DNA from: a virus
DNA: 64,000 bases
Reading direction: 5' to 3' (one strand)
Virus record (IMG/VR): IMGVR_UViG_3300012971_000018
Location: 32,001-96,000 of that record
Position 1 is the first letter of the stretch, and each line of letters starts with the position of its first letter. Positions 14,843 through 61,000 of the stretch are shown one piece after another. The position numbers and the translations under genes were made by a program. The notes under the pieces were generated by a model. That model was not told the DNA's origin, made no database searches, and saw nothing but the letters and a program-made list of their open reading frames with translations.

Positions 14843-14843
14843 T

Positions 14844-38991: not shown

Positions 38992-39025
38992 TTGCGACGG
39001 TAATCGGATCACGCACGGGGCGAAA

Positions 39026-43826: not shown

Positions 43827-44797
43827 TGCAGACGGAATTGAATGCACTGTTCGACAGCAACTACGCGCTTAACCGCAAGCTAAAGACGGCCAGAGCGGCC
43901 GTGCTCGCCAAGGATGCCCAGCTAAATGCGCTCGCCAGCGAGAACGCACGGCTAAAGACGCGGCTTGCGCTCGATGCCCGCAAGAAGCCGAAGCTGTTGC
44001 GTCCCGTCCATGCGTCCGCGGGACTGGAGGCCGAGTACCGCCGCCGGCTCGACGCGCTAATCTGCAAGATGTGCGAGTCGGTTAATTACTGGATACGCTC
44101 CAACTACCGGGCCAACGAGCCGCGGCTTAGCGAGCTAAAGGACACGGACGTCGAGCTTGCGCTCGATGTGGTCCCGGCTAATGAACTAAGGCGCGTGGTG
44201 CGCCGGCTGGCACGGCGCTGGCAGAAGAATTTCGCCATTGCCGCCAATCGCCTTGCACGCTGGTTCGCACAATCCAATCGCAATCGTTCGGTCGAGCAGC
44301 TCCACCGCATCCTGCGCGAGGGCGGATGGAGCGTTAACGTCCCGCTAACGCAGGCGCAGCGCGATATCCTGGCGGCCACTGTCCACGAGAATGTCTCGCT
44401 TATCCGCTCGATCCCGAGCCGTTACTTTACCGAGATCGAAGGCATGGTTATGCGATCGGTCCAGACCGGCCGCGATCTCGGCCAGCTAACGAAGGACCTG
44501 CAACGGCAATACGGTGTTACGCGCAAGCGGGCGACGCTTATCGCGCGCGACCAGAACAACAAGGCGACGGGTGCCTTCCATCGCACCCACCAGTTGGAGC
44601 TGGGCATAACCGAGGCCATTTGGGTCCACTCCCATGCCGGCAAGACTTGGCGCCGGACCCACATTGCGAACGACGGCAAGAAGTACGATGTCCGCCGCGG
44701 GTGGTTCGATCCGGACCCCAAGGTGCGCAAATACATCCAGCCCGGCGAGCTTATAAACTGCCGCTGCTTTAGCCGTTCAATTATCCCGGGGTTCTAG
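43826..44797 (+). CDS. head morphogenesis protein (SPP1 gp7/MuF)
   Basis: RATLIARDQNNK, RRTH, PGELINCRC. Confidence 0.9.
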   Translation: MQTELNALFDSNYALNRKLKTARAAVLAKDAQLNALASENARLKTRLALDARKKPKLLRPVHASAGLEAEYRRRLDALICKMCESVNYWIRSNYRANEPRLSELKDTDVELALDVVPANELRRVVRRLARRWQKNFAIAANRLARWFAQSNRNRSVEQLHRILREGGWSVNVPLTQAQRDILAATVHENVSLIRSIPSRYFTEIEGMVMRSVQTGRDLGQLTKDLQRQYGVTRKRATLIARDQNNKATGAFHRTHQLELGITEAIWVHSHAGKTWRRTHIANDGKKYDVRRGWFDPDPKVRKYIQPGELINCRCFSRSIIPGF

Positions 44798-44928: not shown

Positions 44929-45093
44929 TTAGTGCAGGACGCCGATCCGGCTAAGGCCACCAAATATCTCGGCGGCGATCCACAGCGCGACGCCCAATGG
45001 CAGCATCTGCCACGAGCCGACCGTCGGTATGCGCACTGCGATGCAGGTTATAACGAAGGCGAACGCCAGCAGAACCAGTCCCAGGTTGGCCAT
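44929..45093 (-). CDS. small two-TM membrane protein, antisense to the late operon
   Basis: MANLGLVLLAFAFVITCIA...; GGAG RBS. Confidence 0.65.
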   Translation of the reverse strand: MANLGLVLLAFAFVITCIAVRIPTVGSWQMLPLGVALWIAAEIFGGLSRIGVLH

Positions 45094-45253
45094 GGTGTCT
45101 CTCCTCCAAAGCCGCGGCCATAAAACGCCCGGCCCCAAATAAAGTTCCCCCTGCGATAACGTCGAGAACCGCCCTCCAACCCCGTTCTCGATGTTTGGCC
45201 GTCCGGGCAACGCTTCCCTCCCCGGACGGCCTTCCTAATGGGGAGTTTTTCCA

Positions 45254-45511
45254 ATGCAGAAACTCTGGACGTCCGAAGAGGACAAAATCCTCTTAGAGCA
45301 GCGCCGCGTCCACGGCCCTGCCTGGCGGGTGTACTACGACCCGATGATGACCGGGCAGCGGCGTTCGATCGACGCCTGCGAGCGGCGCCTTAACTTTCTG
45401 CGCCGCCGGCACCGCCCGGTGCGCCCTACGCCCGACGGCGAACCCTTGCGGGTGGGCGACGACCGCCTGCTCCAGCTCCTGCGCCAGCACCACGTCCTTG
45501 TAGAAAGGTAA
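45254..45511 (+). CDS. Myb/GcrA-like HTH protein
   Basis: WTSEEDKIL...RRSIDACERR. Confidence 0.5.
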   Translation: MQKLWTSEEDKILLEQRRVHGPAWRVYYDPMMTGQRRSIDACERRLNFLRRRHRPVRPTPDGEPLRVGDDRLLQLLRQHHVLVER

Positions 45512-45517
45512 GAGACT

Positions 45518-45895
45518 ATGATCTTTTCGAAACGGTCCCACGAAGGCTGTCTTATGATCGACCATCGGGCCTCGCCGGGCATTCCCCGCGCGAAGGCGAT
45601 CGAGATGGGGATGGACCCCGCTCTGGTCGGCGAGGGCAAGCTGTTCGAAACGGTTACGCTAGGGTGTAACCATTGTGGTGGTTGCTGGGTTAAGAACCCC
45701 GATCGCCAACGCGATCGGCACCACTGCGTAAAATGCGATCGGTATCTGTGTGACTGGTGTCACGCGGAAACCACGAAACCAGACTACGTACATCGGTCGT
45801 TCCAGGAACTTGTCGATATAGTGCGCAGCGGCAAGTTCATTATTGCTGGTGGTTACGCGCACGCTCCACTCCTCATCCCTTCTAATGGAGGATAG
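45518..45895 (+). CDS. zinc-finger protein
   Basis: CNHC, CVKC, CDWC. Confidence 0.7.
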   Translation: MIFSKRSHEGCLMIDHRASPGIPRAKAIEMGMDPALVGEGKLFETVTLGCNHCGGCWVKNPDRQRDRHHCVKCDRYLCDWCHAETTKPDYVHRSFQELVDIVRSGKFIIAGGYAHAPLLIPSNGG

Positions 45896-45898
45896 CAA

Positions 45899-46414
45899 AT
45901 GTCCAAGCGTGTATACGCCACTGGCGGGCAGACGTTCACTGCTGCGGCGACCGGTGGTGCGATTGCGAACAACACCTACATGGCGTTGTTCGGTGCGGCT
46001 TCGACCCAGCTAATCGACGTGCTCGAAGTCCTCGTATCCGGAATGGCGACCGCCTCGACGGTGGCGGCGATGCGGCTTGGTCGAGCTTCGACCATCCACT
46101 CGTCCGCGACTGCGCTGGCCTCGCCTTCTTCGGACGGCTTCGAATTCCCCAATGCGTCGGCGCTGTCGTCGTCGGTGGTGTCGTTCAACTCCGCCGTTAC
46201 CGGCCCGACCCCGTCGGCGACCGTTACCGATGCGGGATTGAATCTGGGACTGAATCTTTTCGGTGGCATCCTGCGCTGGAACGCTGCGCCAACCCAGCAA
46301 TGGCAAGTCATCGGCAACACCGCCCCTGGCGGCGAGAGCGTTCTGTGGAACTCCTCGACCCATGGCGGTTCGTCGGGCCTCGCCAACGCCCACCTGCTCT
46401 ACGAGCCGTATTAG
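45899..46414 (+). CDS. putative virion structural protein
   Basis: Ala/Ser/Thr/Gly-rich; GGAGGA RBS. Confidence 0.6.
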   Translation: MSKRVYATGGQTFTAAATGGAIANNTYMALFGAASTQLIDVLEVLVSGMATASTVAAMRLGRASTIHSSATALASPSSDGFEFPNASALSSSVVSFNSAVTGPTPSATVTDAGLNLGLNLFGGILRWNAAPTQQWQVIGNTAPGGESVLWNSSTHGGSSGLANAHLLYEPY

Positions 46415-46476
46415 GACCGGTGGACTAACTGTCGGGGGAGCAGTCCTCCGACAGTTAACGTTTAGGGAAGCGTACC

Positions 46477-47361
46477 ATGCGACTAACCATGGTTATTGCG
46501 ACGCGGGGGCGCCCTGCGCTGCTCGCCGAGACCGTGCGCCATACCGTACTCAACATGTCCAGGTCCTCGTCGGCGATGCTAATCTGTATCGACGACGACG
46601 ACGGACCGACGCTCGACAGTATTAGGTTATTGCCAAAGGACGATCGCATAGTCGTATCGGTTAAGCCGCGCGAGGACAGCCGCGGCGAGAAATACGACCG
46701 GGCGCTAACGGAAGCGCCGGCCGATGTCTACCTGCCGGCGGTCGATTGTGCGCCGATCCTAACACCGGCCTTCGACCAGATTATTATCAATGCCGCTCGC
46801 ATCTTCCCGGATGGGATCGGGTGCGTCTATACCCCGATGGCGAACCAGTTCTTCCCCGGGCTCCAGGCGATAACGGCGCGCATGGTGCAGCACCTGGGGC
46901 ATATCTACAGCCACGACTATCCGTTCTGGTTCGTCGACCACGAGCTGGACGATATCGCGCGCATGGTCGGGCGCTACTGCGTCTGCCCTAATATTCATGT
47001 TGCCAGTGCTGGGCTGCGCCCGGCCAAGACGATCCGGATGCGCGACCTTGCATTCTGGGCGAGCTACTTCGATACTGCGACGCTCGCGCGCCGCACCGCG
47101 GCCAGCCAAATCCTTAATGCCCCCGACTTCGAGGAGACGGAGTGGCGCAAGGTAGTTATGGCGAATTGGTTCCATGTTGTCGAAGCCCGCACCCATGGCA
47201 TAATCGCGAACCTGCACCAGAACGCCAAAGCGATCGAAGCCGAGCGCGGCGAGAGCGGCCCTCCGGACGAAGGCTATCTCCGCATTAAGGCGCTGGCCGA
47301 GACGAAGATGGAGGGGATGCTGGCCGTCCAGAAGGTCGTCCGGGGTATGGATGGTGCATGA
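46477..47361 (+). CDS. glycosyltransferase, GT2-like
   Basis: VIATRGRP, IDDDD, FWFVDHE. Confidence 0.75.
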   Translation: MRLTMVIATRGRPALLAETVRHTVLNMSRSSSAMLICIDDDDGPTLDSIRLLPKDDRIVVSVKPREDSRGEKYDRALTEAPADVYLPAVDCAPILTPAFDQIIINAARIFPDGIGCVYTPMANQFFPGLQAITARMVQHLGHIYSHDYPFWFVDHELDDIARMVGRYCVCPNIHVASAGLRPAKTIRMRDLAFWASYFDTATLARRTAASQILNAPDFEETEWRKVVMANWFHVVEARTHGIIANLHQNAKAIEAERGESGPPDEGYLRIKALAETKMEGMLAVQKVVRGMDGA

Positions 47362-48032
47362 AGGTAATGTTCGCTACGCCGTGCTATGGGTCGCAGGTAG
47401 GAATGAACTACCTGGCATCGATGTTTAGCCTGGCGCTCGACGCCCAACTCGAAGGTCTCGACTGCGTGCTCTATACGCATAGCGAGAGCCTAATAACGCG
47501 TGCCCGCAACCGGATGCTGGCGACGTTCCTGGAGCGCAAGGATTGCACCCATCTGTTCTGGATCGACGCCGACGTCTCGTTCCGCCCGCGCAATGTGTTT
47601 AAGCTGTTGGCATACAATCTCGACGTCGTTGCCGCCGTTCCGCCGCTAAAGGCGCCGGGCGATACCCAGTACCCGGTAAAGCTGGTCGGCCCGCGGGTCG
47701 GCGATCTGGTCGAGGCTATCGAAGCCCCGACGGGCTTTATGGCGATAAAGCGCGACGTGTTCGATAAGATGGCCGAAGCGTATCCCGGGCTTGGTAGTTG
47801 GGTCGAGGAGCCGGACGGCAGCAAGCGTGGGATTTGGCGCTTCTTCGATACGATGGTCGAGCCGGACCCAAAGTCCCCGCACTTTTCCCGCTACCTTTCC
47901 GAGGACTATGCATTCTGTCGGCGCTGGCGCGATGCTGGGGGCAAGATATATGTTGACGTCGAATGTCGGTTGGGGCATCTAGGCCAGCGTATGTACGAAG
48001 GCGAGTTGGGGGATAGCCTGCGTGGCGACTAA
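47358..48032 (+). CDS. glycosyltransferase, GT-A fold
   Basis: ATPCY, ITRARN, FWIDAD, TGFMAI, SEDYAFC. Confidence 0.85.
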   Translation: MKVMFATPCYGSQVGMNYLASMFSLALDAQLEGLDCVLYTHSESLITRARNRMLATFLERKDCTHLFWIDADVSFRPRNVFKLLAYNLDVVAAVPPLKAPGDTQYPVKLVGPRVGDLVEAIEAPTGFMAIKRDVFDKMAEAYPGLGSWVEEPDGSKRGIWRFFDTMVEPDPKSPHFSRYLSEDYAFCRRWRDAGGKIYVDVECRLGHLGQRMYEGELGDSLRGD

Positions 48033-48705
48033 CATCCCATCCGTTGCCGAGCGCGCCAAGCTGTTCCGGATTTGGGAAGCCTACGACCAGTCGCTCCCGC
48101 CGTTTGCTCCGACCAAGAAGATGGTCGTCGGTTATCTGCGCCTTCCGTCGGATGCCGCCGCTATCGTCGAGCGCGCGCCGGAAGTCCGGTTTGTGTCGGG
48201 CCTAACCCTGCCTGGATGGGTAACGGTGGAATTTAATGCGGACGAGGAAAGGGTATTCAACGATACCAGCACCTTCCGCATAATTAACGGACCGCTCGAA
48301 GACCTGCTAACCGAATGCGTGCGGCAACTGCGCGATCCGGTTACGGCCTATCTGGAGAGCTGCTGGCGTATATTGAACGTCCGGGTGTGGACGACCCCGC
48401 CGCATTCGACGATTTCGCAGATGTACAGTTGGCACATGGACGGAATGCCGGACCAGATATTTAAGATTATGGTCTACTTTACGCCGATGGACGCGGCCCA
48501 CGGTGGCCTGGAGACGCTTAAGGGTCCGCTGCTCGGCCCGGCCGGGACGTGGGTGCTGTTCTGGAATTCCAAGATCGACCACCGAGGCAAGGCCGGCGCC
48601 AGCCGTATCCGGGCTTCGGCCGAGATTACCCTGTGCCGATCTGTGCGGTACGATCTCGTGCTGCACCAGCCCGGAATTAATGCCCACTGGCCCGAGAGAC
48701 CATGA
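48022..48705 (+). CDS. 2OG-Fe(II) dioxygenase-like protein
   Basis: WHMDG...KIMVYF...HRG (HxD...H triad). Confidence 0.65.
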   Translation: MATNIPSVAERAKLFRIWEAYDQSLPPFAPTKKMVVGYLRLPSDAAAIVERAPEVRFVSGLTLPGWVTVEFNADEERVFNDTSTFRIINGPLEDLLTECVRQLRDPVTAYLESCWRILNVRVWTTPPHSTISQMYSWHMDGMPDQIFKIMVYFTPMDAAHGGLETLKGPLLGPAGTWVLFWNSKIDHRGKAGASRIRASAEITLCRSVRYDLVLHQPGINAHWPERP

Positions 48706-49466
48706 TCCATTCGCTAAACATAGGCGGCGGCCCGGGATTTAGAGCCGACGGCTGGCTTAACCTCGACGAGATGCAGAATGTCGCAGGCGAGGGTTTTATA
48801 TTCGACGCTACTTGCATCGTACCGCTCGCCGACAAATCGGTGCGGTTGGTCTACAGCTCCCATACGCTGGAGCATCTAGACGATCCCACGGTTGCACGCT
48901 TGCTGGAGGAGAGCCACCGTGTCCTTGCACCGGATGGCACATTGGTCATAAAGATACCCGACTTCGACGCACTGCTGGCGGCGTATCGCAATGATGACTT
49001 CGCCTATTTGGACCTGCCGCTGTGGAACATGCCCGCGGTGGTTAACACGCTGGCCAATCGTGGCATGGTCGACTCGATCGCGACGCGGACGGCGTGGCTG
49101 TTCTGTGGCTGGTGGAACCGGGAATTCGGCCATCTGTTCGGCAATTACAGTCCGTACCGGCCCGGGGCCTACAATGGGCCACCCGTGCTAACCCAGGACA
49201 GGCTAAAGGGCATTCTCGCAATGTATTCGCCACACGACATCGCCGCGCGATTGCGGGAGCATGTCGTGGCCAAAGAGAAGCACTATACGTTTAACCACCA
49301 GAATGCCTGGAGCCGCAAGGAGTTTATAACGTTGTTGCAGGACCACGACTTTATCTGGACCTGCGACGACAAGGACTGGGTAATCGCGAGCCAGAGCGCC
49401 ATCCCCGGGATCGAGGAAATGCGTAACATAAGCTACTACGTACAAGCGAGGAAAGGTCATGGGTGA
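48702..49466 (+). CDS. class I SAM-dependent methyltransferase
   Basis: LNIGGG, WLNLD, SHTLEHL, RVLAPDG. Confidence 0.8.
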   Translation: MIHSLNIGGGPGFRADGWLNLDEMQNVAGEGFIFDATCIVPLADKSVRLVYSSHTLEHLDDPTVARLLEESHRVLAPDGTLVIKIPDFDALLAAYRNDDFAYLDLPLWNMPAVVNTLANRGMVDSIATRTAWLFCGWWNREFGHLFGNYSPYRPGAYNGPPVLTQDRLKGILAMYSPHDIAARLREHVVAKEKHYTFNHQNAWSRKEFITLLQDHDFIWTCDDKDWVIASQSAIPGIEEMRNISYYVQARKGHG

Positions 49467-50598
49467 GTTAATAGGACTGGTTGGTAAGCCGCCGTCGCTG
49501 CGGAACGTCTACGGCAATGCCGAGGTAATTGAGTTCCTGGAGAAATGGCTAAAGGCCGCGAAGCTCGGCAACATTAACTACGTTGCGCTAACTGCGACCT
49601 TGCCCCCCGATATTGCAATTAACGACTTTGCCGGCTCGATCGAGGGCGAGGAGAACGTCCTCGAAGCCATTATCGAGGGTCTGGTCCCGTTAATCCGGGA
49701 GTCACTTGCCAAGAAGGAACCGCCCCCGCAGGACGACGAGCTAAATGCCAGCTATCTAAGCTATCCGGTAACCAAGCTCTCGGTCGGCTTCGACTTTATC
49801 TTTAGCCTCGTTGCGCAGAAGATGGTCTGCAAGCGGGAAGGCATTGCCGGTCCGGTACGGATCGGCTTCTGGGCCGGCAAGTCCGGCACGATGGGGGTCG
49901 AGGGCGGTTACCGCAAGGGAATGTTCGACAACGTGGTTAAGCCGCTGCTGCCGATGTTCGGTGTGCTGGAGGACGAGCGCGCGATCTACGGCCACCGCTT
50001 CCACAAGTACGACTTCCGGCTGCGGGAGATCGTCGAGGCGTCGCTGGCCGGCGAGAAGGTGCCGACCTATATCCCGTCCGCGGCAGCTATGAACGCCGTT
50101 AACGAGACCGTCGGGCCGGAAGACCCGATCGTCATAACGCTGCGCGAGAGCGATGCTTGGTCCCACCGCAATACGAACAACGATGCCTGGATTGCGTTTG
50201 CCAAAGACCGCGAGCGCGAGGGCTACCCGGTCGTCTTCGTGCGCGATACCGCGAAGTACTCCGAGCCATTGGCCAACATGGCGACCTACCCCGCGGCTTC
50301 GCTGTCGCTGCCGATCCGCGCTGCACTCTACGAGCGCGCCCGGGTTAACTTCTTCGTCGGCAACGGTCCTTGCGATCTCGCCCTGTTTGGCTCGCGTCCC
50401 TGGATACGCATCCAGCGCTACGACAAGGGGAGCCAGCACGAGGTCGAGAACGAGCGGTGGTGGAAGGCGATCGGGCTGGAGCCGGGGACCCAGATGCCCT
50501 GGTGCTCGGACGAGCAGAGGATTATCCTTGGCACCGACGACTACCGGACGATCTCGCAGGCTTGGGAAGAGCTAACCCGGCCGCGCATTCTCTCTTAG
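49459..50598 (+). CDS. putative glycosyltransferase-like protein
   Basis: ITLRE...RNTN...RAALYERA..NFFVGNGP; island context. Confidence 0.45.
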   Translation: MGELIGLVGKPPSLRNVYGNAEVIEFLEKWLKAAKLGNINYVALTATLPPDIAINDFAGSIEGEENVLEAIIEGLVPLIRESLAKKEPPPQDDELNASYLSYPVTKLSVGFDFIFSLVAQKMVCKREGIAGPVRIGFWAGKSGTMGVEGGYRKGMFDNVVKPLLPMFGVLEDERAIYGHRFHKYDFRLREIVEASLAGEKVPTYIPSAAAMNAVNETVGPEDPIVITLRESDAWSHRNTNNDAWIAFAKDREREGYPVVFVRDTAKYSEPLANMATYPAASLSLPIRAALYERARVNFFVGNGPCDLALFGSRPWIRIQRYDKGSQHEVENERWWKAIGLEPGTQMPWCSDEQRIILGTDDYRTISQAWEELTRPRILS

Positions 50599-50624
50599 AG
50601 AGGCTGGAGCAGGGAGGCAATGCC

Positions 50625-50939
50625 ATGGCGGCCACATTTTCCCAACTGGGCGAGATCGCCGGCCATCCAGATTTTATACGGCGTGTTAACGTCGCTATGA
50701 ACAATGCTGCGCTCAATGTCTACAACGAGTCGAGTACCACACCTGGGCACCAGGCACGCGCGTCGTTTGCGACTAAGGTCGTCAATGGCCAGTATAATCT
50801 GGAAGCCGCAGTTTATGGCATTTTAACCGGAACCGCGATTATTAACGAGGCCAATCCAGCCATTCCTGGGGACGGCATCGCGGACGCCGACATATCGACC
50901 GAAGTCGCGGCAGCCTGGAACGTGTTCGCGGGAGCATAA
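50625..50939 (+). CDS. hypothetical (virion-associated) protein
   Basis: GGAGG RBS. Confidence 0.65.
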   Translation: MAATFSQLGEIAGHPDFIRRVNVAMNNAALNVYNESSTTPGHQARASFATKVVNGQYNLEAAVYGILTGTAIINEANPAIPGDGIADADISTEVAAAWNVFAGA

Positions 50940-50942
50940 GCC

Positions 50943-51392
50943 GTGGCAAATATCGGCAAATGGAATGCACCTAGTGCTACCCTTACGGTGCTCTCGACCG
51001 GGCTTAATTCGCTCGCCAACAATACCATGTCGGCGGCTTCCTCGAACATTGCAAACCAGACCAATCTCGACATCTATGTGGACATCGAAATTGCTCTTGC
51101 CTCGTTGTCGCCGACCTCCGGTGCATATGTGGCGCTTTACATTCTAGAGGCGGTAGATGGTTCCAACTTTCCGGCACAGTCCGACGCCGATCTCCGACTA
51201 ACCGGCACGCAGTTGTTGTGTGTTGTGCCAATAGGCACAACTGCCAGCACGGCGCAGCGGGTTGCCGTGCGCAACGTCGTAATCCCGCCCGGCCTGTTCC
51301 AGATTAAGCTCGATAACCAGACTGGCGTGTCGCTTAACGCCAGCACCAATACAGTTAAGTTTAACGCCTACAACGTAAACCTCAATGGCTAG
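50943..51392 (+). CDS. putative virion structural protein
   Basis: beta-strand-like composition; precedes LamG gene. Confidence 0.6.
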   Translation: MANIGKWNAPSATLTVLSTGLNSLANNTMSAASSNIANQTNLDIYVDIEIALASLSPTSGAYVALYILEAVDGSNFPAQSDADLRLTGTQLLCVVPIGTTASTAQRVAVRNVVIPPGLFQIKLDNQTGVSLNASTNTVKFNAYNVNLNG

Positions 51393-52152
51393 AAATTTCA
51401 ACGGCACGAGCGACGTTATCGATATCGGCACGCCAGCTCCGCTGAACATCTCTGCCAACTCCCAGATCGCTGTTTCGGTGTGGATGAATCCGACAGCCCA
51501 GCCTTCGTCGGGCTCCGATGCTGACATTTCTGGCAAGGGGTTTGATGGGACCACCACATCCTATGAAATGAAAATTTCGGGTTCTGGGGCAGGAAACCTT
51601 ATTTTCTTCGGTTCATTTTCTGGTGGCGGTCACGGCGCAGGCAGTGGTGGTCTCGCTACAACAAATGGGGTTTGGACCCATCTCTACGGTGATTACGATG
51701 GCGCCACTTGGCATCTGTATGTCAATGGCATCTTGCAAGGCAGTTCGACCGACGCCATCGGCCCGCAGAACAATACGATGCGCAGCAGTATCGGCGCGCT
51801 GTGGCTGAACGGCTCGTTTGGCAACTGGTTCAATGGTCGTGTTGCACATCGCTGCGAGTGGAACCAGGCGCTGACCGCACCGGAAGTCAAGCAACTCGCG
51901 CTCGGGCGTTCGCCGTTGACGATCCGCCCAGGTCGTATACTCGGCTACTGGCCGCTGTCCATGGGATATGGACAGCCGGCGATCGACCGCGGTCCGTTCA
52001 ATCTTGGTAGTGGTACCATTACTGGAACCAAGCTCGCGCCTGATCCGCCGCTCACTACAATTAGTCAGATTAACTTGCTCGATTTGGAAGCACCATTTCC
52101 ATTTGTTATGGTAGCGCCACCGGCGCTTTTGATGGCCCAAATCGTGCTCTAA
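51385..52152 (+). CDS. LamG/ConA-like lectin domain protein
   Basis: FNGTSD, SVWM, WTHL..YDG...LYVNG, WNQALTAPEV. Confidence 0.85.
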   Translation: MARNFNGTSDVIDIGTPAPLNISANSQIAVSVWMNPTAQPSSGSDADISGKGFDGTTTSYEMKISGSGAGNLIFFGSFSGGGHGAGSGGLATTNGVWTHLYGDYDGATWHLYVNGILQGSSTDAIGPQNNTMRSSIGALWLNGSFGNWFNGRVAHRCEWNQALTAPEVKQLALGRSPLTIRPGRILGYWPLSMGYGQPAIDRGPFNLGSGTITGTKLAPDPPLTTISQINLLDLEAPFPFVMVAPPALLMAQIVL

Positions 52153-52153
52153 C

Positions 52154-55100
52154 GTGGCCAACATATTTAGAGGTCCACTTTATGTAAAAACCTGGTGGCC
52201 GGAGCTACAACCACCAGACAATAGCCTGCGCACATGGACGGCTAATTATACATTGGCGCTGTTCGCGCCTCCTCCCCCGGTCGTCAGTCCGCAAACTGTC
52301 CGCGCCCCGCTGTACATAAAGGTTCGCTGGCCGGAGTACGAAGATAATCTGCGGTCTTGGACGTGGAAGTACATTCCGGAACTTATTGGCAGGGATAGGC
52401 TGCCGACCGGCAAGCAAGTCTACGATCTCCCGCCGGTCGCCAAGTACACGCGACAAGTTGATCTAAATACCTGGACTTGGAAATACAACAATCTTCTAAT
52501 TGGCAGGGATAGGCTGCCGACCGGAAAGCAGTCTTATGAGCTGCCGCCGGTCGCCAAGTACACGCGACAAGTTGATCTAAATACCTGGACTTGGACATAC
52601 AACAATCTTCTAATTGGCAGGGATAGGCTCCCGACCGGAAAGCAGTACACCGACCGTCCGCCGCCGGTTTATTGGTACCAGACCTGGACCCTAAACCTGC
52701 TGCAAGGCACGTTGTCGATTACGCCGGTCTTCCCGTTTGTACAAACCGATTGGCCACTACCCCGTGCTCCACAACAAGCTGCGCCGTCCTGGACTTGGTC
52801 CTACAACTTAAATCTGGTTGGTAAAGACCAGCTTCCGGTTGGCGACCAGTTCTTCGACACTGCGAAAGGTCCAATACAGCCCGATCGCGGCTTTACGTTT
52901 ACATTCCCGCGCGAGCTTATCGGGCAAGACCAGCTTCCACCCGGCGAGAACGTCTTCGATCCGCCGCCACCGCCACCGCCGATACCCACACTAAGGACGT
53001 GGGTCTATTCGGCGCTTCTGCTCCTTACGGCGGTCGGCCTGCCCCCGGGACAGCAAAGCACCGATCGGCCGCAGATTGCGCCGCCATGGCGTCCGGAAAC
53101 GGTCCAGCAGAACGTTCTCCAGAGCGTTCTCGCTCCGCTGCCCCCCGGCAAGCAGAGTGTCGATCTCCCGCCACGCGACCCACGCGAGGTGCGGACCTGG
53201 ACGTGGTCCTATCCGCTGGAGCTAATCGGGCAAGACCAGCTTCCGGTTGGGGAAAATGTATTCGATCTAACGCCGACAGGGCCTCCAAAGGAGTGGCCGA
53301 GATATTGGAGTTGGAGCTATAACTTAAATCTAGTCGGCCAGGACCGGTTCCCGGCCGGTAAGGCGGTCTACGACCGCCCGCCGATCGGTCCAGTCCCGAT
53401 CCCGCAGAGCTGGACGTGGTCCTATTCGCTGGAGCTAATAGGGCAGGACAAATTCCCGCCCGGCGAAAATCTATTTGACCTTACAGCGTCGCCGCTACGT
53501 CCGGGGTTAACGTGGACCGCTAGCCTTAACGTAGCTGCGCAGCCTGCGATCCCGCCCGGCGAGAACGTCTTCGACCAAACCCCGGTCGGCCCCGTCCCGA
53601 TCCCGCAATCGTGGGCGCAGTCCTATCTTTTAACCCTTATTGGGCAGGACCGGCTACCGGTTGGCGAGAATGTCTTCGAGCTTCCCCCGCGGGACCCGCG
53701 CGAAGTCCGCTCGTGGACTTGGTCGTTTAATCTAAATCTTATCGGTAGGGACAGGCTTACCGCGGGCGCCCAGGTCTACGATCGGCCGCCGGTCGGACCC
53801 GTCCCGATCCCGCAAAGCTGGACGTGGTCATATAACCTAAACTTAGTCGGCAAAGACCAGCTACCACCCGGCGAGAATGCTTTCGACCTATGGCCGGCCG
53901 GACCGCGACAGCCGGCGATTACGTGGACCTCCTTCGTTGCCGAAGGCGTCGAGGTCCAGCCGATCGGCAAGGCATCTTATGACCTTGCTCCGCGCGGCTA
54001 TCCGCCCCAGGTCCCATCGTGGGCTTGGTGGTATTCGCTAGAGCTAACCGGGCAAGACAAGCTTCCGGTCGGCAAGGCGATCTACGACCTAACGCCGAAG
54101 GGTCCACAGCCGCTACTCCAGGTCTGGACCGTAAGCGTTAATCTGGCCGAGACGATCGGCGCCCAAATCCCGCCCGGCGGGATAATCTACGACCTCGCTC
54201 GCGGACCGCCTCCACTCGTTCCGTCCTGGGCGTGGTGGTACGCGCTGGAGCTAATCGGCCAGGACCAGCTTCCGGCCGGCAAGGCGGTCTACGATCTCCC
54301 GCCGCGCGCCGAAGACCCCTTCCCACGCTCGCTGCGATCGTGGACGTGGTCGTACCTGTTAGAGCTAATTGGACAAGACGTCCTGCCCCCGGGTGAGAAC
54401 GTCTTCGATCTAACGCCGAAAGGCCCGGCGCCGCTTCTACAGGTCTGGACGCAGAGCCTTTACGTCGTAGCGGTAACGCCGCCGCCACTCCCGCCCGGCG
54501 CAAATGTCTACGACCTCGCCCGTGGCCCGGCCCCGCTAGTCCCATCGTGGACTTGGTCTTATTCATTAGAGCTAATCGGAAAGGACCAGCTACCCGCCGG
54601 CAAGGCGATCTACGACCTAGCGCGCGGCTATCCGCCCCAGGTCCCATCGTGGACTTGGTCCTATTCGTTGGTTCTCGTTGGCAAAGACCAGCTACCCACA
54701 GGTAAGCAGGTCTACGATCTCGCGCCGCGAGGCTACCCGCCACAAGTTCCGTCGTGGACGTGGTGGTACCCGCTAGAGCTAATCGGCAAGGACCGGCTAC
54801 CCGCGGGTATGCAGGTCTACGACCTCGCTCCGGTCGGACCGTTCCAGCCTGCTCGTGGCTATGCCGCGTTCTTCCCGCGCGTCCTTATCGGACAGGACCA
54901 GCTTCCACCCGGCGAAGACGTCTTCGATCTCGCCCGTGGACCACCTCCACTCGTTCCGTCGTGGACGTGGTTTAGTACCCAGGCCGCGGCTGTCGTCGCT
55001 CCGGTCGGCGTTGCGGTAACAGACCTCCCGCGGGCACCGCAGCAGCCGGCGCTCGGGCAGACCTCGTCGTTCCCGCTCGAATTGGTCGGGCAAGACCAGC

Positions 55101-56641
55101 TACCGGTTGGCAAGAACGTCTTTGATCTTACTCCGGCAGGTCCACGACAGCCGGCACCGTCTTGGACCCAGAGCTTCCCGCTGGAGACGTTCCAGCAGCT
55201 TCCCCCCGGCGTCCAATCGACCGATCTCGCCCGCGGCCCGATCCAACCAGACCGGGGCTTTACCGCTTTCTTCCCACGGGTCCTTAGTGGCCAGGACCAG
55301 CGCGCGACGGGTACCCAGGTCTACGACCGCGCCCCGGTCGGACCGTTCCAGCCCGATCGCAGCTTTACATTCACATTCCCGCGCGTCCTTATCGGGCAAG
55401 ACAAGCTACCGCCCGGTGCGCAATCGACCGATCTCGCCCGCGGCCCGATCCAACCGGACCGAGGATTTACCGCTTCCTTCCCGCGCGTCCTTATCGGGCA
55501 GGACCAGCTTCCGCCCGGCCAGGACGTCTTCGATCTCGCGCCTGCGGGACCCCGCCAGCCGACGACGATCTTTGCGGCGGCGCCAAGCCTCGCGCTAACG
55601 TCGGCGGTTCTCGCCCCGCCCGGTGCGGCGATCTACGATCTGGCGAAAGGCCCACCCCCGCAAGTTCCGTCGTGGACGTGGTGGTACCCGCTAGAGCTAA
55701 TCGGCAAGGACCAGTTCCCGCCCGGCAAGGTCCTGTACGACCGCACGCCGATCGGTCCGCAGCCGCTTCTGCAAGTCTGGACGTACTACACTCCGCTTAC
55801 GATCGCTCCGGTTATCCGTCCGTTCGTCCAGACGGACTGGCCGCCACCGCCCAGCGGCCCGATCCAGCCCAATCGTGGCTTTGCGTTCACATTCCCTCGC
55901 GAGCTTATCGGTCAGGATAGGTTCCCGCCCGGCAAGCAGGTTTGGGACCCGGGCGTTGGCATTCCGTTAACCTCGTGGCCGCGGTTCTACAGCTTCTCGT
56001 TCCCGCTGGAGCTTATCGGCCGGGACAGGCTGCCGCCCGGCCGGCAGACGACAGAGCTAACCGGCCGGTATCCGTTCCCGACGGCGACGTTCTGGACCTG
56101 GAGCTTTAACCTTAATCTCCGCGGTCGCGACCAGCTCCTCGTCGGCGTCCAGCTTTACGATCTAACGCCACGCGACCCGCGCGGATTTGGGCTTACCTGG
56201 ACGCAGCGTTTCGGGCTAAAGACCCTCCAAGGCCCGACGCCGTTTGCGCAATACGATTGGCCGTTAACACCCGCCGCGTTCCAGTTCAATCGTGGGTCTG
56301 CCTTTACATTCCCACGCGAGCTAATTGGCAAGGACAAATTCCCGCCCGGCGTCCAGACCACCGACAGAACGCCGCGCGGCCCGCAGCCGCTGCTCCAGAC
56401 TTGGTACTACACCGAGCCGATCCCGAACTACCCGATAATCGGCCGGATAAAGCATATCTGCATGACGATAGCGGCGCAGACGACGACGACCGTCGTTGTT
56501 AAGGCGCTGCCGCCGAGTGTTACAGTAGCGGCACAGACGACGGCGACCGTCGTTATTAAGTCGCTGCCGCCGAGCGTTAGCGTGGCTCCGACGATTAATG
56601 TGGGAGTAACCATCGATGCCCCGGACGACAAATGCTCCTAA
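52154..56641 (+). CDS. 1495-aa Pro/Trp-rich tandem repeat protein
   Basis: about 27 full and 8 variant ~38-aa units, consensus WTWSYxLELIGxDxLPxGxxVYDLxPxGP. Confidence 0.85.
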   Translation: MANIFRGPLYVKTWWPELQPPDNSLRTWTANYTLALFAPPPPVVSPQTVRAPLYIKVRWPEYEDNLRSWTWKYIPELIGRDRLPTGKQVYDLPPVAKYTRQVDLNTWTWKYNNLLIGRDRLPTGKQSYELPPVAKYTRQVDLNTWTWTYNNLLIGRDRLPTGKQYTDRPPPVYWYQTWTLNLLQGTLSITPVFPFVQTDWPLPRAPQQAAPSWTWSYNLNLVGKDQLPVGDQFFDTAKGPIQPDRGFTFTFPRELIGQDQLPPGENVFDPPPPPPPIPTLRTWVYSALLLLTAVGLPPGQQSTDRPQIAPPWRPETVQQNVLQSVLAPLPPGKQSVDLPPRDPREVRTWTWSYPLELIGQDQLPVGENVFDLTPTGPPKEWPRYWSWSYNLNLVGQDRFPAGKAVYDRPPIGPVPIPQSWTWSYSLELIGQDKFPPGENLFDLTASPLRPGLTWTASLNVAAQPAIPPGENVFDQTPVGPVPIPQSWAQSYLLTLIGQDRLPVGENVFELPPRDPREVRSWTWSFNLNLIGRDRLTAGAQVYDRPPVGPVPIPQSWTWSYNLNLVGKDQLPPGENAFDLWPAGPRQPAITWTSFVAEGVEVQPIGKASYDLAPRGYPPQVPSWAWWYSLELTGQDKLPVGKAIYDLTPKGPQPLLQVWTVSVNLAETIGAQIPPGGIIYDLARGPPPLVPSWAWWYALELIGQDQLPAGKAVYDLPPRAEDPFPRSLRSWTWSYLLELIGQDVLPPGENVFDLTPKGPAPLLQVWTQSLYVVAVTPPPLPPGANVYDLARGPAPLVPSWTWSYSLELIGKDQLPAGKAIYDLARGYPPQVPSWTWSYSLVLVGKDQLPTGKQVYDLAPRGYPPQVPSWTWWYPLELIGKDRLPAGMQVYDLAPVGPFQPARGYAAFFPRVLIGQDQLPPGEDVFDLARGPPPLVPSWTWFSTQAAAVVAPVGVAVTDLPRAPQQPALGQTSSFPLELVGQDQLPVGKNVFDLTPAGPRQPAPSWTQSFPLETFQQLPPGVQSTDLARGPIQPDRGFTAFFPRVLSGQDQRATGTQVYDRAPVGPFQPDRSFTFTFPRVLIGQDKLPPGAQSTDLARGPIQPDRGFTASFPRVLIGQDQLPPGQDVFDLAPAGPRQPTTIFAAAPSLALTSAVLAPPGAAIYDLAKGPPPQVPSWTWWYPLELIGKDQFPPGKVLYDRTPIGPQPLLQVWTYYTPLTIAPVIRPFVQTDWPPPPSGPIQPNRGFAFTFPRELIGQDRFPPGKQVWDPGVGIPLTSWPRFYSFSFPLELIGRDRLPPGRQTTELTGRYPFPTATFWTWSFNLNLRGRDQLLVGVQLYDLTPRDPRGFGLTWTQRFGLKTLQGPTPFAQYDWPLTPAAFQFNRGSAFTFPRELIGKDKFPPGVQTTDRTPRGPQPLLQTWYYTEPIPNYPIIGRIKHICMTIAAQTTTTVVVKALPPSVTVAAQTTATVVIKSLPPSVSVAPTINVGVTIDAPDDKCS
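52385..52645 (+). repeat. near-identical 114-bp tandem duplication
   Basis: attggcagggataggct at 52385, 52499 and 52613. Confidence 0.9.
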
Positions 56642-56982
56642 GCGGCGTTAACTCCCAAATCCGCGGCAATTCGATTGGCTTTACCGTGACGTTCACGGAT
56701 GCCAACAACTTGCCGGTTTCGCCAGTAAGCGTAAACCTAACGCTGGCGTATATGAACTACGCGGCGCCAAACCCTCCTCCGGCGACGTGTGGAACCACCA
56801 TTCCGGAGATCGTGCGGCAGACCCTGCCAATGACGCTTACGGGTCCGGGGACGTTTTTCGTCGCGTGGGACAGTTCCGTTGCCGGTCCAGGCAAGGTATC
56901 GTGGGTCGTGCAGTCGCAAGGCCCCGAGGCGGCGTGGGAAGGGTTCTTCCTGCTCGAAGCAAATCTGGCGAATGTAGCATGA
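56632..56982 (+). CDS. hypothetical beta-sandwich-like protein
   Basis: FTVTFTD...GTFFVAWD. Confidence 0.6.
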   Translation: MLLSGVNSQIRGNSIGFTVTFTDANNLPVSPVSVNLTLAYMNYAAPNPPPATCGTTIPEIVRQTLPMTLTGPGTFFVAWDSSVAGPGKVSWVVQSQGPEAAWEGFFLLEANLANVA

Positions 56983-58067
56983 ACGGCATTTTCGTATGCG
57001 TCCCGGTCTGGGGCGAGAACCACGTAAACCGGCTGCTCGACGTCGCGATCCCATGCTTGTTGGCGGAAGGTAATCTGCCGACGCTCGCCCGCATCTACCG
57101 GGTCGCGATGGTTATCTACACCAACGAGTACGACGCCGAGGTGCTGCGGGCTTCGAGCAGAATGAAGGCGCTCGAAGCGGTTATCGACGTGGTCTACGAG
57201 ACCTACGGGCACAATCCCGCCGAGATGGTCCAGATACTCCACCCGGGTTTCGGACACGGTGGGACCGTAATGAAGATATGCCATAACTACGGCATCGTCC
57301 GGGCCTGGAAGGCCGGCTTCGGGCTATGCCCGATCGTGGCGGACGAGTTCTTCTCGAATGCCTGGGGCGAGACGATCCTGTACTGCCTTAAGACCGGCCG
57401 GCGCGCCGTTATGGAGGTCGGCTACGCGCTTCCCAACACATTCCTGGAAGTCCTCGACCGGCACCGCAAGGGCGATGTTATCTCGATCTCGCCACGGGAT
57501 GCCTCTCGCGAGATGATTAAGCTTATTAATCCGCCTTCGATCGCCGAGCACGACGATCGCCAATGGCGGTTGCTCTGGGGGGCGCTCTCGGGCCACGGCT
57601 TCCTAATGCGCCCGCACCACATCCCGGTCGACTTTATCTGGCCGACGAAGGGACCGGTGTGGTGCAATCGGAGCCAGGACAATGACTTTGCACACCAGGC
57701 GCTCGATACGCCCAACGATGTTCTGCTAATTACCTCCTCGCTCCAGTCCGTTAACGGTGGCATCGAGGGCATGGGCAACTCCGCACCCCCAAAGCCGACA
57801 TCGTGGGACGCTGCGCGGGCCGCTTGCGTTAACGCCGAGCTACAGGCGGTTTGGCTTAAGCACGCCTGCAACGATTGGCACAAGCAATGGATGTCGACGA
57901 ATTTCTGGTGCGAGGATGGCGAGCTGGGCACGGACGAGCGCAAGTATATTGAAGACCATGCCGCCGCGGTTGTCGCCGAATGTTTCGTGCAATACGATAA
58001 TCTAATGGCTGGCCGTGGACGTGCCGAGATGCATGCGGCCGATCGCGAGATTAGCACTTGGTGGTGA
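56979..58067 (+). CDS. glycosyltransferase-like protein
   Basis: CVPVWG...IPCLLAEGNLP, IVADEFFS. Confidence 0.5.
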   Translation: MNGIFVCVPVWGENHVNRLLDVAIPCLLAEGNLPTLARIYRVAMVIYTNEYDAEVLRASSRMKALEAVIDVVYETYGHNPAEMVQILHPGFGHGGTVMKICHNYGIVRAWKAGFGLCPIVADEFFSNAWGETILYCLKTGRRAVMEVGYALPNTFLEVLDRHRKGDVISISPRDASREMIKLINPPSIAEHDDRQWRLLWGALSGHGFLMRPHHIPVDFIWPTKGPVWCNRSQDNDFAHQALDTPNDVLLITSSLQSVNGGIEGMGNSAPPKPTSWDAARAACVNAELQAVWLKHACNDWHKQWMSTNFWCEDGELGTDERKYIEDHAAAVVAECFVQYDNLMAGRGRAEMHAADREISTWW

Positions 58068-58073: not shown

Positions 58074-61000
58074 ATGGCGCTGCCTAGCTTTTCCAGCAAC
58101 AAGGGCTGCTATGTAAATGGTAGGTGGCAGAGCGAGTGCGACCGGCAGGCTCGTGAATGGCTGCAAAAGCAAGGAGCTAAACAGCGCGAGGCATCGGTTA
58201 CCAAGAACGTAACTCTTGCTAATGGCAAGGTGCTGCCTAACAGAACGCTAAAGGACACGGTGTGGGACCTCCCGAGTGGCCAGACGGTTAAGCTTGAGTC
58301 CCATCCCGGAAGTTTTGGTAACCTAGCGGCTCCGAGAAGTGCCAGCACCCGCATTGTGGAAGCACCGCGCCATTTTTGGCGTGGAGGGGGCGACGAGATG
58401 GCTCCTAAAGAGGAAGCAGAGGACCTTGGCATCGGGGAGCTTTCCTCCACCGATATGGCGAAGTTTTCTGCGCTTCCGCGTGCGAAGAAGGCGCAGGTCG
58501 CCGAGCTTATGACCCAAGCGCGCAAGTGGAAGGACCGCGGCCAGGAGGCTCGCGCCAACACCTACATTCGCCAAGCCGAGGCGATCCTGGGACAGGACGG
58601 CTGGGCGCAGGATATCCCGTACCAGGTAACCCAGGGCAAAGAGGCCAAGGCCGCCGGCAAGTCCGAGGCCGACAATCCCTATCCGAAAGGCTCCAACCCT
58701 GCGCGCTTCTGGCGCGACGGCTTCCGCGATACCTGGGAAGCCCCCTATTCGCCCGGTGCCATGCCGGGCGGACGGGACGAAGAGCGCCCCGACGAGCTAA
58801 GGCACGCCGCGGGCGTAATGTTCATAGACCCCGAAGGCCAAGTCCTTCTTATGCGCCGGGCGGGCAATAGCGACCATAGCGGCGAATGGTCCTGGCCCGC
58901 GGGCGGGATGGAGGAGGGCGAAGGCCCCGAGGAGACTGCGTACCGCGAGGCCGGCGAAGAGACTGGATACCTCCCCGAGAATTTGAGCTTTATCCACCAG
59001 GAGACCTCGCCCGATAACGTCGACTTCGTTACGTTTGGCTCGCAGGTCGATGCCCCGTTTAGGCCCGAGCTAAACGACGAGCACGACGAGCACGGCTGGT
59101 TTCCGCTCGACCAGCTTCCCGAGAATGTGCACCCGGGCGTGCGTTCGCTGTTCGATGGGGATGCCGATCCCATGGCCGAATGGCAGAAGAAGAACCAGCC
59201 ATGGAAGCTGCGCGAGCAGGAGCACGAGCTTCCGCCCGGGGGCGATCCCGAGGCGGAGGAGCGCGTTAACGAATACGCGCGCGCCGGCACGCCGAGGAAG
59301 GCGAACGACGCGCCTACTATGAGCAAGGAAGAGGCCGGCTACATCGACGCGGCTCCCGGTCCGAGGTTCTGCCAGGATTGCACGATGTTCCGGGAGGGCG
59401 GCGCTTGCACGCTGGTCGAGGGCGATATCGCACCGAAGGGTTGTTGCGACCACTTCGAGGCCAAAGGGGCGAACGACGAAGAGCCGGAGATTATCGTCGA
59501 CGACGACTATGCGGATATTGAGGTCGACTCGGACCACGATGGCCCTTGGATGTCTTGCATGTCCAAGGACGGGACGAAGATGTACGTTAATTCCAATCTC
59601 CCCGACGAGGTCGATATCCTTGGCACCAAGGTCGACCCGGTTAACGTTCTGCTCCGGCACGAAGCCCCCGAGTGGCAGGACCTGCGGGAGCGGATCGAGG
59701 AGTTTAAGCTGGAGCACGGCCGCGAGCCGAAGACGTCCGAGCGCGAGCAGATTTATCTAAAGGCACACAACGCCGCCGGAACGCCGAACGAGCGCGCCTA
59801 CTGCAAAGAGCAGGGCATTGATTGGGATGCCTGGTCGGCTTGGTGCCGCGGCCAGGAGTCGAAAATCGAGAATATGGAGCCGAAGAACATGCCGGCCGAC
59901 GCCGATGTCTGGCCGGTCCGGCACTACCATGGCGACCTCGAAGTAACGATGGACAGCTACGTTACGGTCGATATGGAGGAGGAGGACTTGGAGGAGGCCG
60001 AGGACTTGCCGCTCGGCCAGCACCAACAGGAGACCGACTTCCTTAGAAAGTACCGCGCTGGAAAGCGCGGGGTCGAGGGACTTAGCATTCTTGGCCGCAG
60101 GCCCCCGCCGCCACCCGAAAGATTGCACCATACGCAGAAGCACATAGAACATAGTGGCCATCTTGAGCGAAAGGGGGCGTACCGGTTCGATCCGCTGTTT
60201 GCCGGCGATGCTGGCGAGGACACATTTATTACGGTTATGGGCGGCGACTTGTCGATGGTCGATGCCACGACCGGGCGTGCGCTGGGTACGCTCTCGCGCG
60301 TTGGCGTATGGAAGTACGATCCGTCCAGTGGACAACATCGGGTGGTCGAGGTCTCCAACGATCTCGGCGCAATGCAGCACAAGTATGGAGTACCGGACCA
60401 GAACGTACACCACCAGGGATCGGACGAGGCGATCGATGAATTCCGCGAGGAAGAGCACAAGCGCGACCAGGGTGGGAAGTTTAGCTCTACAGGTGGCGGT
60501 GGCGGTGGCGCAGTGGCTGGCGGCCCACCCAAGCAAAACAAGGCGGGATTTAAGCGTGCTGCCGGGTATGGAGCGCCAACCCAAAAGCCCGCGGCCCCAT
60601 CGCCCGCGAAGGCCGAACAAAAGGCACCCGAGGTAGCGGCGCCCAAGAAGATTTCCGAGAAGGTTAAGGCGGCCCCCAAGCAGGTTGCGCAGAAAGCCGC
60701 CACCGCGATTAAGCAGAAGAAGGAGAAGGTTAAAACCTTATTGAATAGCAAAGAGGCGCGCAAGGAATTGCGCAGCCATTTAACACATGAATCGCTGCAC
60801 CATGTGGGCAAGATCGCCGAGGGCATGGCCTACAAGGCGGCGGTTGTCCCCGCTGTCCATCTGGCCATGGAGCACATCCTTCCGCACCTGGGGCTGCATG
60901 GCTCGGGGGCGATGTTTACGGCGGTTGGGGTGGGTGCCTACGCCGTCCACCATCTTATGGACAAGCTGCACATCGACAGCCACGGCGCCACGAAGCTTCT

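Follow-up and report, generated by a model that had tools for sequence, protein, structure and literature searches.

A candidate virion glycosylation island joined to a mobile cassette of predicted surface proteins in the head operon of an IMG/VR myovirus

Introduction

Glycans on the virions of actinobacteriophages shield the particles from antibodies. In the mycobacteriophages Che8, Rita, Corndog and Myrna, phage-encoded glycosyltransferases glycosylate the virions, and virion glycosylation is established only in actinobacteriophages (Freeman et al. 2023 Cell Host Microbe, as cited in PMC12619734 and PMC11256854). Here we describe a gene island that can be compared with these systems, located at positions 45518-58067 of a 64,000-nucleotide stretch of viral DNA (hereafter the window). 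The window comprises bases 32001-96000 of the complete, 111,906-bp IMG/VR virus record IMGVR_UViG_3300012971_000018, which has direct terminal repeats. Coordinates are window positions unless marked as belonging to the genome or to a locus (L followed by a number).

An earlier note on this DNA had placed a set of closely packed, co-oriented genes between those for MuF and a DUF2213 protein, and had read them as one dedicated system that builds a methylated glycan on a surface protein. The position is borne out, as is the organization, with 13 plus-strand open reading frames (ORFs) and many stop/start overlaps. Overall, the observations in the note are partly confirmed and its interpretation is partly supported. 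Comparative context favours glycosylation and tailoring of the virion, but a single dedicated system is too simple a description of what looks like a mobile cassette with inserted enzymes.

Specifically, comparison with other viral contigs suggests that the island is a composite late module of the head operon with two layers. One would be a mobile cassette of predicted virion-surface proteins, here called CYS, P171, P149, LamG, REP and P116. The other consists of candidate glycan-building and tailoring enzymes located between P171 and P149, namely the pair GT294 and GT224, the pair OX227 and MT254, and E379. Because such enzymes recur by capsid genes and are linked to a sugar pathway, and because E379 and GT224 are also linked to the CYS/P171 cassette, we favour, with slightly more confidence than doubt, the reading that the island encodes a virion-directed glycosylation and tailoring system.

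Results

A structural cassette shared with otherwise unrelated phages

The distribution of the structural genes was surveyed by scanning IMG/VR with an alignment of REP, which recovered 34 loci, and by comparing all proteins of this genome with those loci. Almost nothing but island proteins matched. CYS is present in 29 of the 34 loci and P171 in 30, always adjacent to one another and 2-4 kb upstream of REP, while P149 and LamG occur in six loci each. Homologues of P149 with 55-69% identity lie directly upstream of LamG in L020, L016 and L009. A GT224 homologue is found in three REP loci (L028, L030 and L034), each time between P171 and REP, and E379 in one (L007), directly upstream of CYS. 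None of the 34 carries GT294, OX227, MT254 or P362, and relatives of P104 are absent from the loci retrieved.

Those REP-locus contigs that are annotated are T7-like podoviruses with portal (phrog_332), capsid (phrog_212) and tail tubular A/B (phrog_394 and phrog_376) genes, and in these phages the cassette is found among the late genes, often directly ahead of the tail tubular genes. The genome described here is a myovirus according to family scans, with tail sheath, tape measure, baseplate and tail-fibre genes at genome 5.7-18.4 kb. Because 34 otherwise unrelated loci, podoviruses where annotated, share essentially the island proteins alone with this myovirus, the set CYS/P171...LamG/REP is mobile between otherwise unrelated phages of different morphotypes. 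The five enzyme genes of this phage are an insertion between P171 and P149 of the cassette.

Among the smaller cassette proteins, CYS carries six invariant residues (C50, H52, C53, C70, C73 and C78 in alignment A5) and belongs to no Pfam or PHROG family. P171 corresponds to the small structural-type gene of the earlier note: an AlphaFold model built from a 21-sequence alignment is all-beta, with a predicted local distance difference test (pLDDT) value of 91.3 and a predicted template modelling (pTM) value of 0.88. Foldseek searches of the PDB returned weak viral jelly-roll matches only, and searches of BFVD gave template modelling (TM) scores of about 0.5-0.63 to uncharacterised phage proteins. 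The closest named comparators for this jelly roll are the turret of HFTV1 (PDB 8QPG) and the cement protein of Helicobacter pylori phage KHP40 (PDB 7DOU), and P171 is a candidate capsid-surface or fibre-base protein. Profile comparisons with hhalign revealed no relation of P149 or P104 to P171, nor of any of these to the N-terminal domains of REP homologues.

The very large Pro-rich repeat protein and the LamG lectin named in the earlier note were both recovered. REP contains 38 detectable units (27 complete) of ~34 residues with the consensus VRSWTWSYPLELIGQDQLPPGKQVYDLAPRGPR, and its composition is 15.3% Pro and 4.3% Trp. The prolines fall in LPxG and PxGP motifs, and extensin-type Ser-Pro(n) tracts are absent. 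The 46 metagenomic homologues of REP are nearly all singleton clusters in which the repeat region is joined to varied N- and C-terminal domains; REP itself has no Pfam family and no ESM Atlas neighbour (best score 0.78). The LamG protein matches LamG regions in large 'virion structural protein' PHROGs, and a LamG domain is fused to the repeat region in three REP homologues (P0020, P0030 and P0041).

P116 is 35% identical (1e-9) to residues 813-911 of the 916-residue REP homologue P0029. Its frame is -1 relative to that of REP, with an ATG that overlaps the stop codon of REP. Either the gene has been split and its translation is coupled to that of REP, or P116 arises by frameshifting; no canonical slippery site was seen. 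Searches of 50,697 GenBank phage records gave no near or protein-level match to the island, REP, CYS, P171, GT294, E379 or P362.

Two candidate glycosyltransferases that travel as a pair

The earlier note counted two clear and two probable glycosyltransferases. None is clear by Pfam, whose thresholds no island glycosyltransferase passes; GT224 stands as a GT2-like enzyme and GT294 as a probable one, whereas E379 and P362 show no detectable similarity.

GT224 matches phrog_1574 (2e-33) and, weakly, phrog_34859 (glycosyltransferase) and Anp1, and its homologues are found in cyanophages and in phages of Sinorhizobium and Caulobacter. When its family of 27 sequences was compared with 17 bona fide PF00535 proteins taken from bacterial genomes, hhalign returned a probability of 90% (E 1.7e-6, 113 columns), against 0.1-0.2% for control comparisons of unrelated profiles. 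The WIDADV segment of GT224 aligns with the lDaD (DxD) motif of the GT2 profile, and a downstream ED motif is in register as well. GT224 thus shares the DxD and ED register of the GT2-type inverting GT-A enzymes of CAZy (PF00535) but differs in falling below the Pfam gathering score and in being just 224 residues long. These comparisons support its assignment as a GT2-like glycosyltransferase.

The GT294 family has more than 350 metagenomic members, and among the 120 listed, two match PF00535/PF13641 and one bears a glycosyltransferase name from the Joint Genome Institute (JGI). Its hhalign comparison with the PF00535 proteins is not significant (1.8%, E 0.027), with the N-terminal 108 columns in register, and PDB searches with the single sequence and with the family profile were empty. 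GT294 is probably a GT-A glycosyltransferase.

A scan of IMG/VR with the GT294 alignment recovered 46 viral loci. GT224 co-occurs in 39 of them and lies within 2 kb of GT294 in 31; CYS, P171 and REP are found in none of the 46. The typical gene order is portal, scaffold and major capsid protein (phrog_1328 or phrog_283), then the glycosyltransferase pair directly or one to two genes later, followed by connector and structural genes. Indeed, among the 19 loci that contain a verified capsid gene, 12 have it within four genes of GT294, as counted with a crude ORF caller. The family H9 was considered as the capsid family of a further group of contigs carrying the pair ('type C') but could not be verified, local hhalign comparison with verified capsid and portal families being uninformative.

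The present genome encodes a split thiamine-dependent enzyme (E1_dh-like plus Transket_pyr-like) ~25 kb downstream of the pair, where its neighbours are the genes for a DegT aminotransferase (2e-58) and an NAD-dependent epimerase/dehydratase. In six contigs carrying the pair (L073, L074, L076, L079, L081 and L083), homologues of this thiamine enzyme lie in the same cluster as the pair, together with a radical-SAM gene and a gene resembling those of sugar nucleotidyltransferases. The gene set of the present genome is predicted to yield an unusual branched or amino sugar. Because homologues of the thiamine enzyme cluster with the pair in the six other viral contigs, the distal sugar genes and the island pair probably belong to one pathway.

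An oxygenase-methyltransferase tailoring pair

The earlier note's reading of a 2-oxoglutarate (2OG)-Fe(II) oxygenase-like gene is supported for OX227, and its reading of a methyltransferase is confirmed for MT254. In OX227 the residues H138-x-D140, H187 and R197, which form the iron- and 2OG-binding pattern HxD...H...R, are invariant in all five known sequences, a search of 5.8 billion proteins having yielded four relatives. Its nearest named ESM Atlas neighbours are PhyH clusters (feature score 0.95), with structural TM scores of 0.6-0.73 to clusters that are partly annotated as PhyH. These scores refer to the ESM Atlas model (pTM 0.81); our own AlphaFold2 model, built from five sequences, reached a pLDDT of 40 and was left out of the fold search. 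OX227 matched no Pfam family at any threshold, PDB sequence and profile searches were empty, and relatives are absent from the viral contigs searched. It shares HxD...H...R with the PhyH-family oxygenases (PF05721) but differs by the absent Pfam match, by having four relatives and by fusion with a methyltransferase elsewhere. The invariant motif and the neighbours support a PhyH-like 2OG/Fe(II) oxygenase.

MT254 is confirmed by its sequence family as an S-adenosylmethionine (SAM)-dependent methyltransferase: it matches PF08241 at 2.3e-8 (35 bits against a cut-off of 21.2) as well as phrog_6636, and carries an N-terminal IGGGPG motif I. A metagenome scan for OX227 gave three loci, of which L188 is the informative one. 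There, an OX227-like and an MT254-like domain are parts of a single 495-residue ORF (L188 9923-11410, contig Ga0209062_1000893), and MT254 is 45% identical to the C-terminal half of this fusion. Likewise, a 518-residue ESM Atlas cluster, mainly from Pseudomonadota, has an OX227-like domain fused to Methyltransf_11. Because the two domains are fused in both cases, OX227 and MT254 are likely to act as a pair, which points to a candidate hydroxylate-then-methylate tailoring unit.

E379, a large family found near capsid genes

The E379 family comprises 1198 representatives at 50% identity. Among 30 relatives scanned, all six long forms carry an N-terminal PF01973 (Maf-type/MptE-like) domain, with a best match of 5e-24, and methyltransferase domains are present on others. 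Maf-type domains act on bacterial flagellin. The Maf flagellin O-glycosyltransferases thus offer an analogous activity, protein O-glycosylation of a surface polymer, but E379 corresponds solely to the uncharacterised C-terminal partner domain: it has no Pfam match and hence no PF01973. PDB searches with E379 were empty, hhalign revealed no likeness to GT2, and nonulosonic-acid synthase genes were not recognised in this genome. An assignment as a GT9-like GT-B enzyme (PF01075), suggested by motifs, was rejected when hhalign of alignment A7 with 15 PF01075 proteins gave 0.9%. E379 remains a candidate for a new family of protein glycosyltransferases.

A scan of viral contigs with a close E379 alignment yielded 70 loci. 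In 14 of these, E379 has CYS and P171 as its direct neighbours, and REP accompanies them in one of the 14; the other 69 of the 70 contigs lack REP. In another lineage E379 lies one to two genes after the capsid gene K11, which matches the major capsid protein of PDB 7EEL at 1.6e-57, and in T7-like contigs it is found between genes at the scaffold and capsid positions. The family K60 of the T7-like contigs could not be verified as a capsid family.

The E379 scan of genome contigs gave two loci, one in Bradyrhizobium oligotrophicum S58 and one in a metagenome-assembled genome of Solirubrobacteraceae. The former (L159, chromosome 4033124-4049993) encodes a 570-residue fused form of E379 followed by the families K40 and K99, as in the viral contigs L117, L120 and L139, and is the only match of the family in a complete bacterial genome. 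If this locus is part of a prophage, as it may be, it would give a clue to the hosts that such phages infect.

Long-resident enzymes and an apparently recent lectin gene

The genome is purged of TCA/TGA, with 6.1 sites per kb overall and a median of 5.2. In GT294, GT224, OX227, E379 and REP these sites occur at the level seen in the portal and MuF genes (3.3-4.5 per kb), and because they resemble the rest of the genome in this way the enzymes are long resident rather than freshly inserted. LamG is the top outlier among 122 ORFs, with 21 sites or 27.4 per kb, and the one gene of the genome that has escaped the purge; CYS is also high at 16 per kb. Since its sites are still unpurged, LamG looks like a recent acquisition, exchange or replacement.

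Genomic setting and gene coordinates

The head region runs on one strand in the order portal, N6/N4 DNA methylase, a 393-residue protein without assignment, MuF, island, NUDIX and DUF2213 protease fusion, scaffold-like gene, decoration-like gene and major capsid gene (Table 1). A terminator-like hairpin with a T-run at 45231-45245 lies just 5′ of an ORF for a Myb/SANT-like protein. Fourteen plus-strand ORFs extend from this hairpin to 58067, 13 of them within the island, with short or overlapping junctions. Because it is the first gene after the hairpin, the Myb/SANT-like ORF is the probable start of the transcription unit. Scans for plus-strand terminators inside the island found none that was convincing, and a sigma-70 promoter scan gave background level only.

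The gap between MuF and the island (44931-45511) contains, besides the hairpin and the 85-residue Myb/SANT-like protein, a minus-strand ORF of ~54 codons for a hydrophobic, membrane-like peptide. The N6/N4 DNA methyltransferase (PF01555, 1e-27) is encoded at 40855-42228, inside the head module. Downstream of the island, the fusion protein has a NUDIX hydrolase domain at residues 243-357 (PF00293, 6e-23), a DUF2213 prohead protease/scaffold region at residues 1082-1381 and further N-terminal modules, and may be cargo targeted to the capsid.

At the 3′ end of the island, a single 426-residue final ORF was rejected, as the long GTG-started frame has an N-terminus that is not protein-like; it was replaced by P116 and P362. 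P362 has no Pfam or PHROG match, and hhalign comparisons with GT2, GT9, GT224, GT294 and E379 profiles were negative.

Table 1. Coordinates of the island genes and of the other features discussed (window positions unless marked)
Feature	Position	Strand	Description
Amidoligase-like gene	14790-15758		Thymidine hypermodification cluster (14.8-23.3 kb)
5-hydroxymethyldeoxyuridine (5-hmdU) DNA kinase	19420-20301		Thymidine hypermodification cluster
Thymidylate-synthase homologue	21447-23336		Thymidine hypermodification cluster; interrupted by intein and HNH
Family A DNA polymerase	25371-28838		N-terminal uracil-DNA glycosylase (UDG)-superfamily domain; intein
Portal	38978-40840
MuF	43826-44797		PF04233, phrog_324
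Myb/SANT-like protein	45254..45511	+	85 residues; weak Myb_DNA-binding match (0.0032); upstream of island
CYS	45518..45895	+	125 residues; Cys/His-rich, zinc-ribbon-like; conserved DHRASPG motif; no known family
P171	45899..46414	+	171 residues; jelly roll (AlphaFold2 model)
GT294	46477..47361	+	Probable GT-A-type glycosyltransferase; partner of GT224
GT224	47358..48032	+	GT2-like (GT-A fold) glycosyltransferase (profile-profile comparison)
OX227	48022..48705	+	PhyH-like 2OG/Fe(II) oxygenase candidate (invariant motif, ESM Atlas)
MT254	48702..49466	+	Class I SAM-dependent methyltransferase (PF08241, phrog_6636)
E379	49459..50598	+	Enzyme-like; large uncharacterised family; no Pfam match
P104	about 50626..50939	+	Small protein; start placed at internal ATG; weak phrog_33419 match
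P149	50943..51392	+	Small cassette protein preceding LamG; no family match (Pfam, PHROG)
LamG	51385..52152	+	LamG/concanavalin-A-like lectin-fold protein (PF13385, 5.3e-19)
REP	52154..56641	+	Repeat protein, 1495 residues; 38 units of ~34 residues
P116	56632..56982	+	116 residues; split-off REP-type C-terminal domain; start overlaps REP stop
P362	56979..58067	+	362 residues; true start ATG 56979
NUDIX and DUF2213 fusion	58074-62891		1605 residues
Nucleotide-sugar gene set	L004 9066-13757 = genome 105066-109757		Thiamine enzyme, DegT, NAD epimerase/dehydratase

Discussion

How the island may act, and what weighs against this reading

If the island is a virion-directed glycosylation and tailoring system, its action could follow three steps. 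Late in infection, the DegT aminotransferase, the epimerase/dehydratase of the short-chain dehydrogenase/reductase (SDR) type and the split thiamine enzyme would make nucleotide sugars. GT294, GT224 and possibly E379 would then move these sugars onto a surface-exposed virion protein, for which P171, REP and the capsid protein are candidates. Finally, OX227 and MT254 would hydroxylate and methylate the glycan or its acceptor. The structural context agrees with such a role, as portal, MuF, island, protease/scaffold, decoration and capsid genes share one strand.

Several observations weigh against this reading. No acceptor could be recognised: Ser/Thr-tract tails of the kind linked elsewhere to phage glycosylation are missing from the capsid, decoration and cassette proteins, no 15-residue window with nine or more Ser/Thr was found in the capsid and decoration set of ORFs, and the C-terminus of the capsid protein is ordinary. 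GT294, E379 and P362 have no significant similarity to solved or curated glycosyltransferases, and the virion membership of the cassette proteins is itself a prediction. The linkage between the two layers is partial, in that the glycosyltransferase pair and E379 mostly occur without REP and the oxygenase, methyltransferase and P362 are found in no other cassette. Co-occurrence across phages, which the earlier note proposed to check, applies to the glycosyltransferase pair, to E379 with CYS/P171 and to GT224 in three REP loci, but does not extend to REP in contigs with the pair or, beyond one case, with E379, nor to OX227 in REP loci. Moreover, adjacency to capsid genes indicates late co-expression rather than substrate, and the host envelope could equally be modified by late-expressed enzymes.

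Alternative targets of the enzymes

The last point leads to the view that the enzymes are late-expressed morons that alter lipopolysaccharide (LPS), capsule, S-layer or flagellin glycans of the host, for example to stop progeny from re-adsorbing to lysing cells or to exclude other phages, and that the cassette just shares their operon. GT2-like enzymes, DegT and SDR genes are typical of O-antigen and capsule pathways, the Maf-type domains fused to relatives of E379 are flagellin-acting in bacteria, the enzymes are mostly found apart from REP, and the search for acceptor motifs on virion proteins was negative. Seroconversion enzymes, however, are usually encoded at lysogeny or moron positions, whereas the families here are found, in dozens of unrelated phages, with capsid genes on one side and connector genes on the other, and E379 is repeatedly located beside the CYS/P171 pair. 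Pfam and PHROG scans of the island proteins also recognised no membrane or flippase/polymerase partner, although no test dedicated to such partners was made. Modification of the host envelope is thus unlikely in our judgement. A somewhat less unlikely possibility is that REP and the cassette belong to the tail as receptor-binding fibres instead of decorating the head, with enzymes that glycosylate or accompany the fibre. REP is within three genes of the tail tubular A/B genes in at least eight podovirus loci, the terminal domains of its homologues (LamG and others) are exchanged in the manner of receptor-binding proteins, and LamG has matches within large 'virion structural protein' and baseplate PHROGs. 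In the present myovirus, by contrast, the cassette sits among the head genes and is separated by tens of kb from those for sheath, baseplate and tail fibre, in L007 it lies upstream of the portal gene, and the podovirus and myovirus copies of REP share a type of N-terminus, which suggests a common attachment site such as the capsid.

The remaining alternatives concern other substrates within the phage. Glycosyltransferases that hypermodify phage DNA are known (Pyle et al. 2024, as cited in PMC12619734), and the island enzymes, including the oxygenase and methyltransferase, might decorate hypermodified thymidines or other bases. This phage encodes a 5-hmdU DNA kinase (PF18723, 1.7e-44), a thymidylate-synthase homologue and an amidoligase-like gene, and its N6/N4 DNA methylase adjoins the portal gene. 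Yet the hypermodification genes form a self-contained cluster of their own in the replication module, ~25 kb upstream, which indicates that a separate thymidine hypermodification system would account for DNA modification. Elsewhere the glycosyltransferase pair and E379 lie by capsid genes and the kinase is present in none of 150 loci retrieved, while OX227 is PhyH-like rather than TET/JBP-like and MT254 is a Methyltransf_11 protein of the type acting on small molecules or proteins. DNA as the target is accordingly very unlikely. We give still less credence to the extensin-like scheme of the earlier note, in which OX227 hydroxylates prolines of REP and the resulting hydroxyprolines carry a methylated glycan assembled by the glycosyltransferases. 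The 15% Pro content and conserved LPxG and PxGP motifs of REP would suit it, as would the presence of a 2OG oxygenase candidate and glycosyltransferases in the same operon. But this part of the note did not hold up: relatives of OX227 are missing from all 34 REP loci and from the viral contigs searched, the protein is nearest to PhyH and not to prolyl 4-hydroxylase and is fused to a methyltransferase elsewhere, REP is devoid of Ser-Pro(n) tracts, and the glycosyltransferase pair is found in 46 contigs that lack REP. The scheme is extremely doubtful.

A possible appendage module

Virion-directed glycosylation and tailoring remains our preferred account of the island. Since REP is absent from all 46 contigs with the glycosyltransferase pair and from 69 of the 70 with E379, it is not the general acceptor. 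A bolder proposal, which we offer tentatively and consider doubtful as a whole, is that CYS/P171/(P149, LamG)/REP constitutes an undescribed, horizontally mobile virion-appendage module. It would consist of a jelly-roll base and a giant Trp/Pro-rich fibre of 34-residue repeats, would move between podoviruses and myoviruses, and would recruit E379, as a new protein-glycosyltransferase family, together with GT294/GT224; the acceptor would be P171 or REP.

The island suggests that virion glycosylation is a trait much wider than the actinobacteriophages. Cultured phages either lack GT294, GT224 and E379 or carry them without annotation, yet in well over 100 uncultured viral contigs these families lie next to capsid genes. 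Some phages couple these enzymes to a dedicated pathway for an unusual sugar, and here they are coupled also to a mobile set of surface proteins without a characterised relative. Neither the CYS/P171/REP cassette nor the E379 family nor the oxygenase-methyltransferase pair has been characterised before, and the analysis names P171 or REP as acceptor, E379 as transferase family and OX227/MT254 as tailoring pair as candidates for work at the bench. If confirmed, the system would be relevant to the way phages recognise their hosts, to how stable their particles are in soil and water, and to the engineering of particles that carry defined surface glycans.

Comparison with mycobacteriophage virion glycosylation

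The closest described counterpart is the mycobacteriophage system, which likewise combines phage-encoded glycosyltransferases with a methyltransferase and is proposed or shown to coat virion proteins with glycans. Genetic linkage of the glycosyltransferases to structural genes, as in the mycobacteriophage type, is seen here in the head operon and elsewhere in the capsid neighbours of the same families. The two differ in their enzyme families, since GT294, E379 and P362 have no tblastn match in GenBank phages, and in the capsid protein, which here has no C-terminal acceptor tail. Unlike the mycobacteriophages, this phage does not evidently have an actinobacterium as its host. The island adds to the mycobacteriophage plan a candidate oxygenase, a mobile cassette of jelly-roll, LamG and giant-repeat proteins, and what is predicted to be a dedicated sugar pathway.

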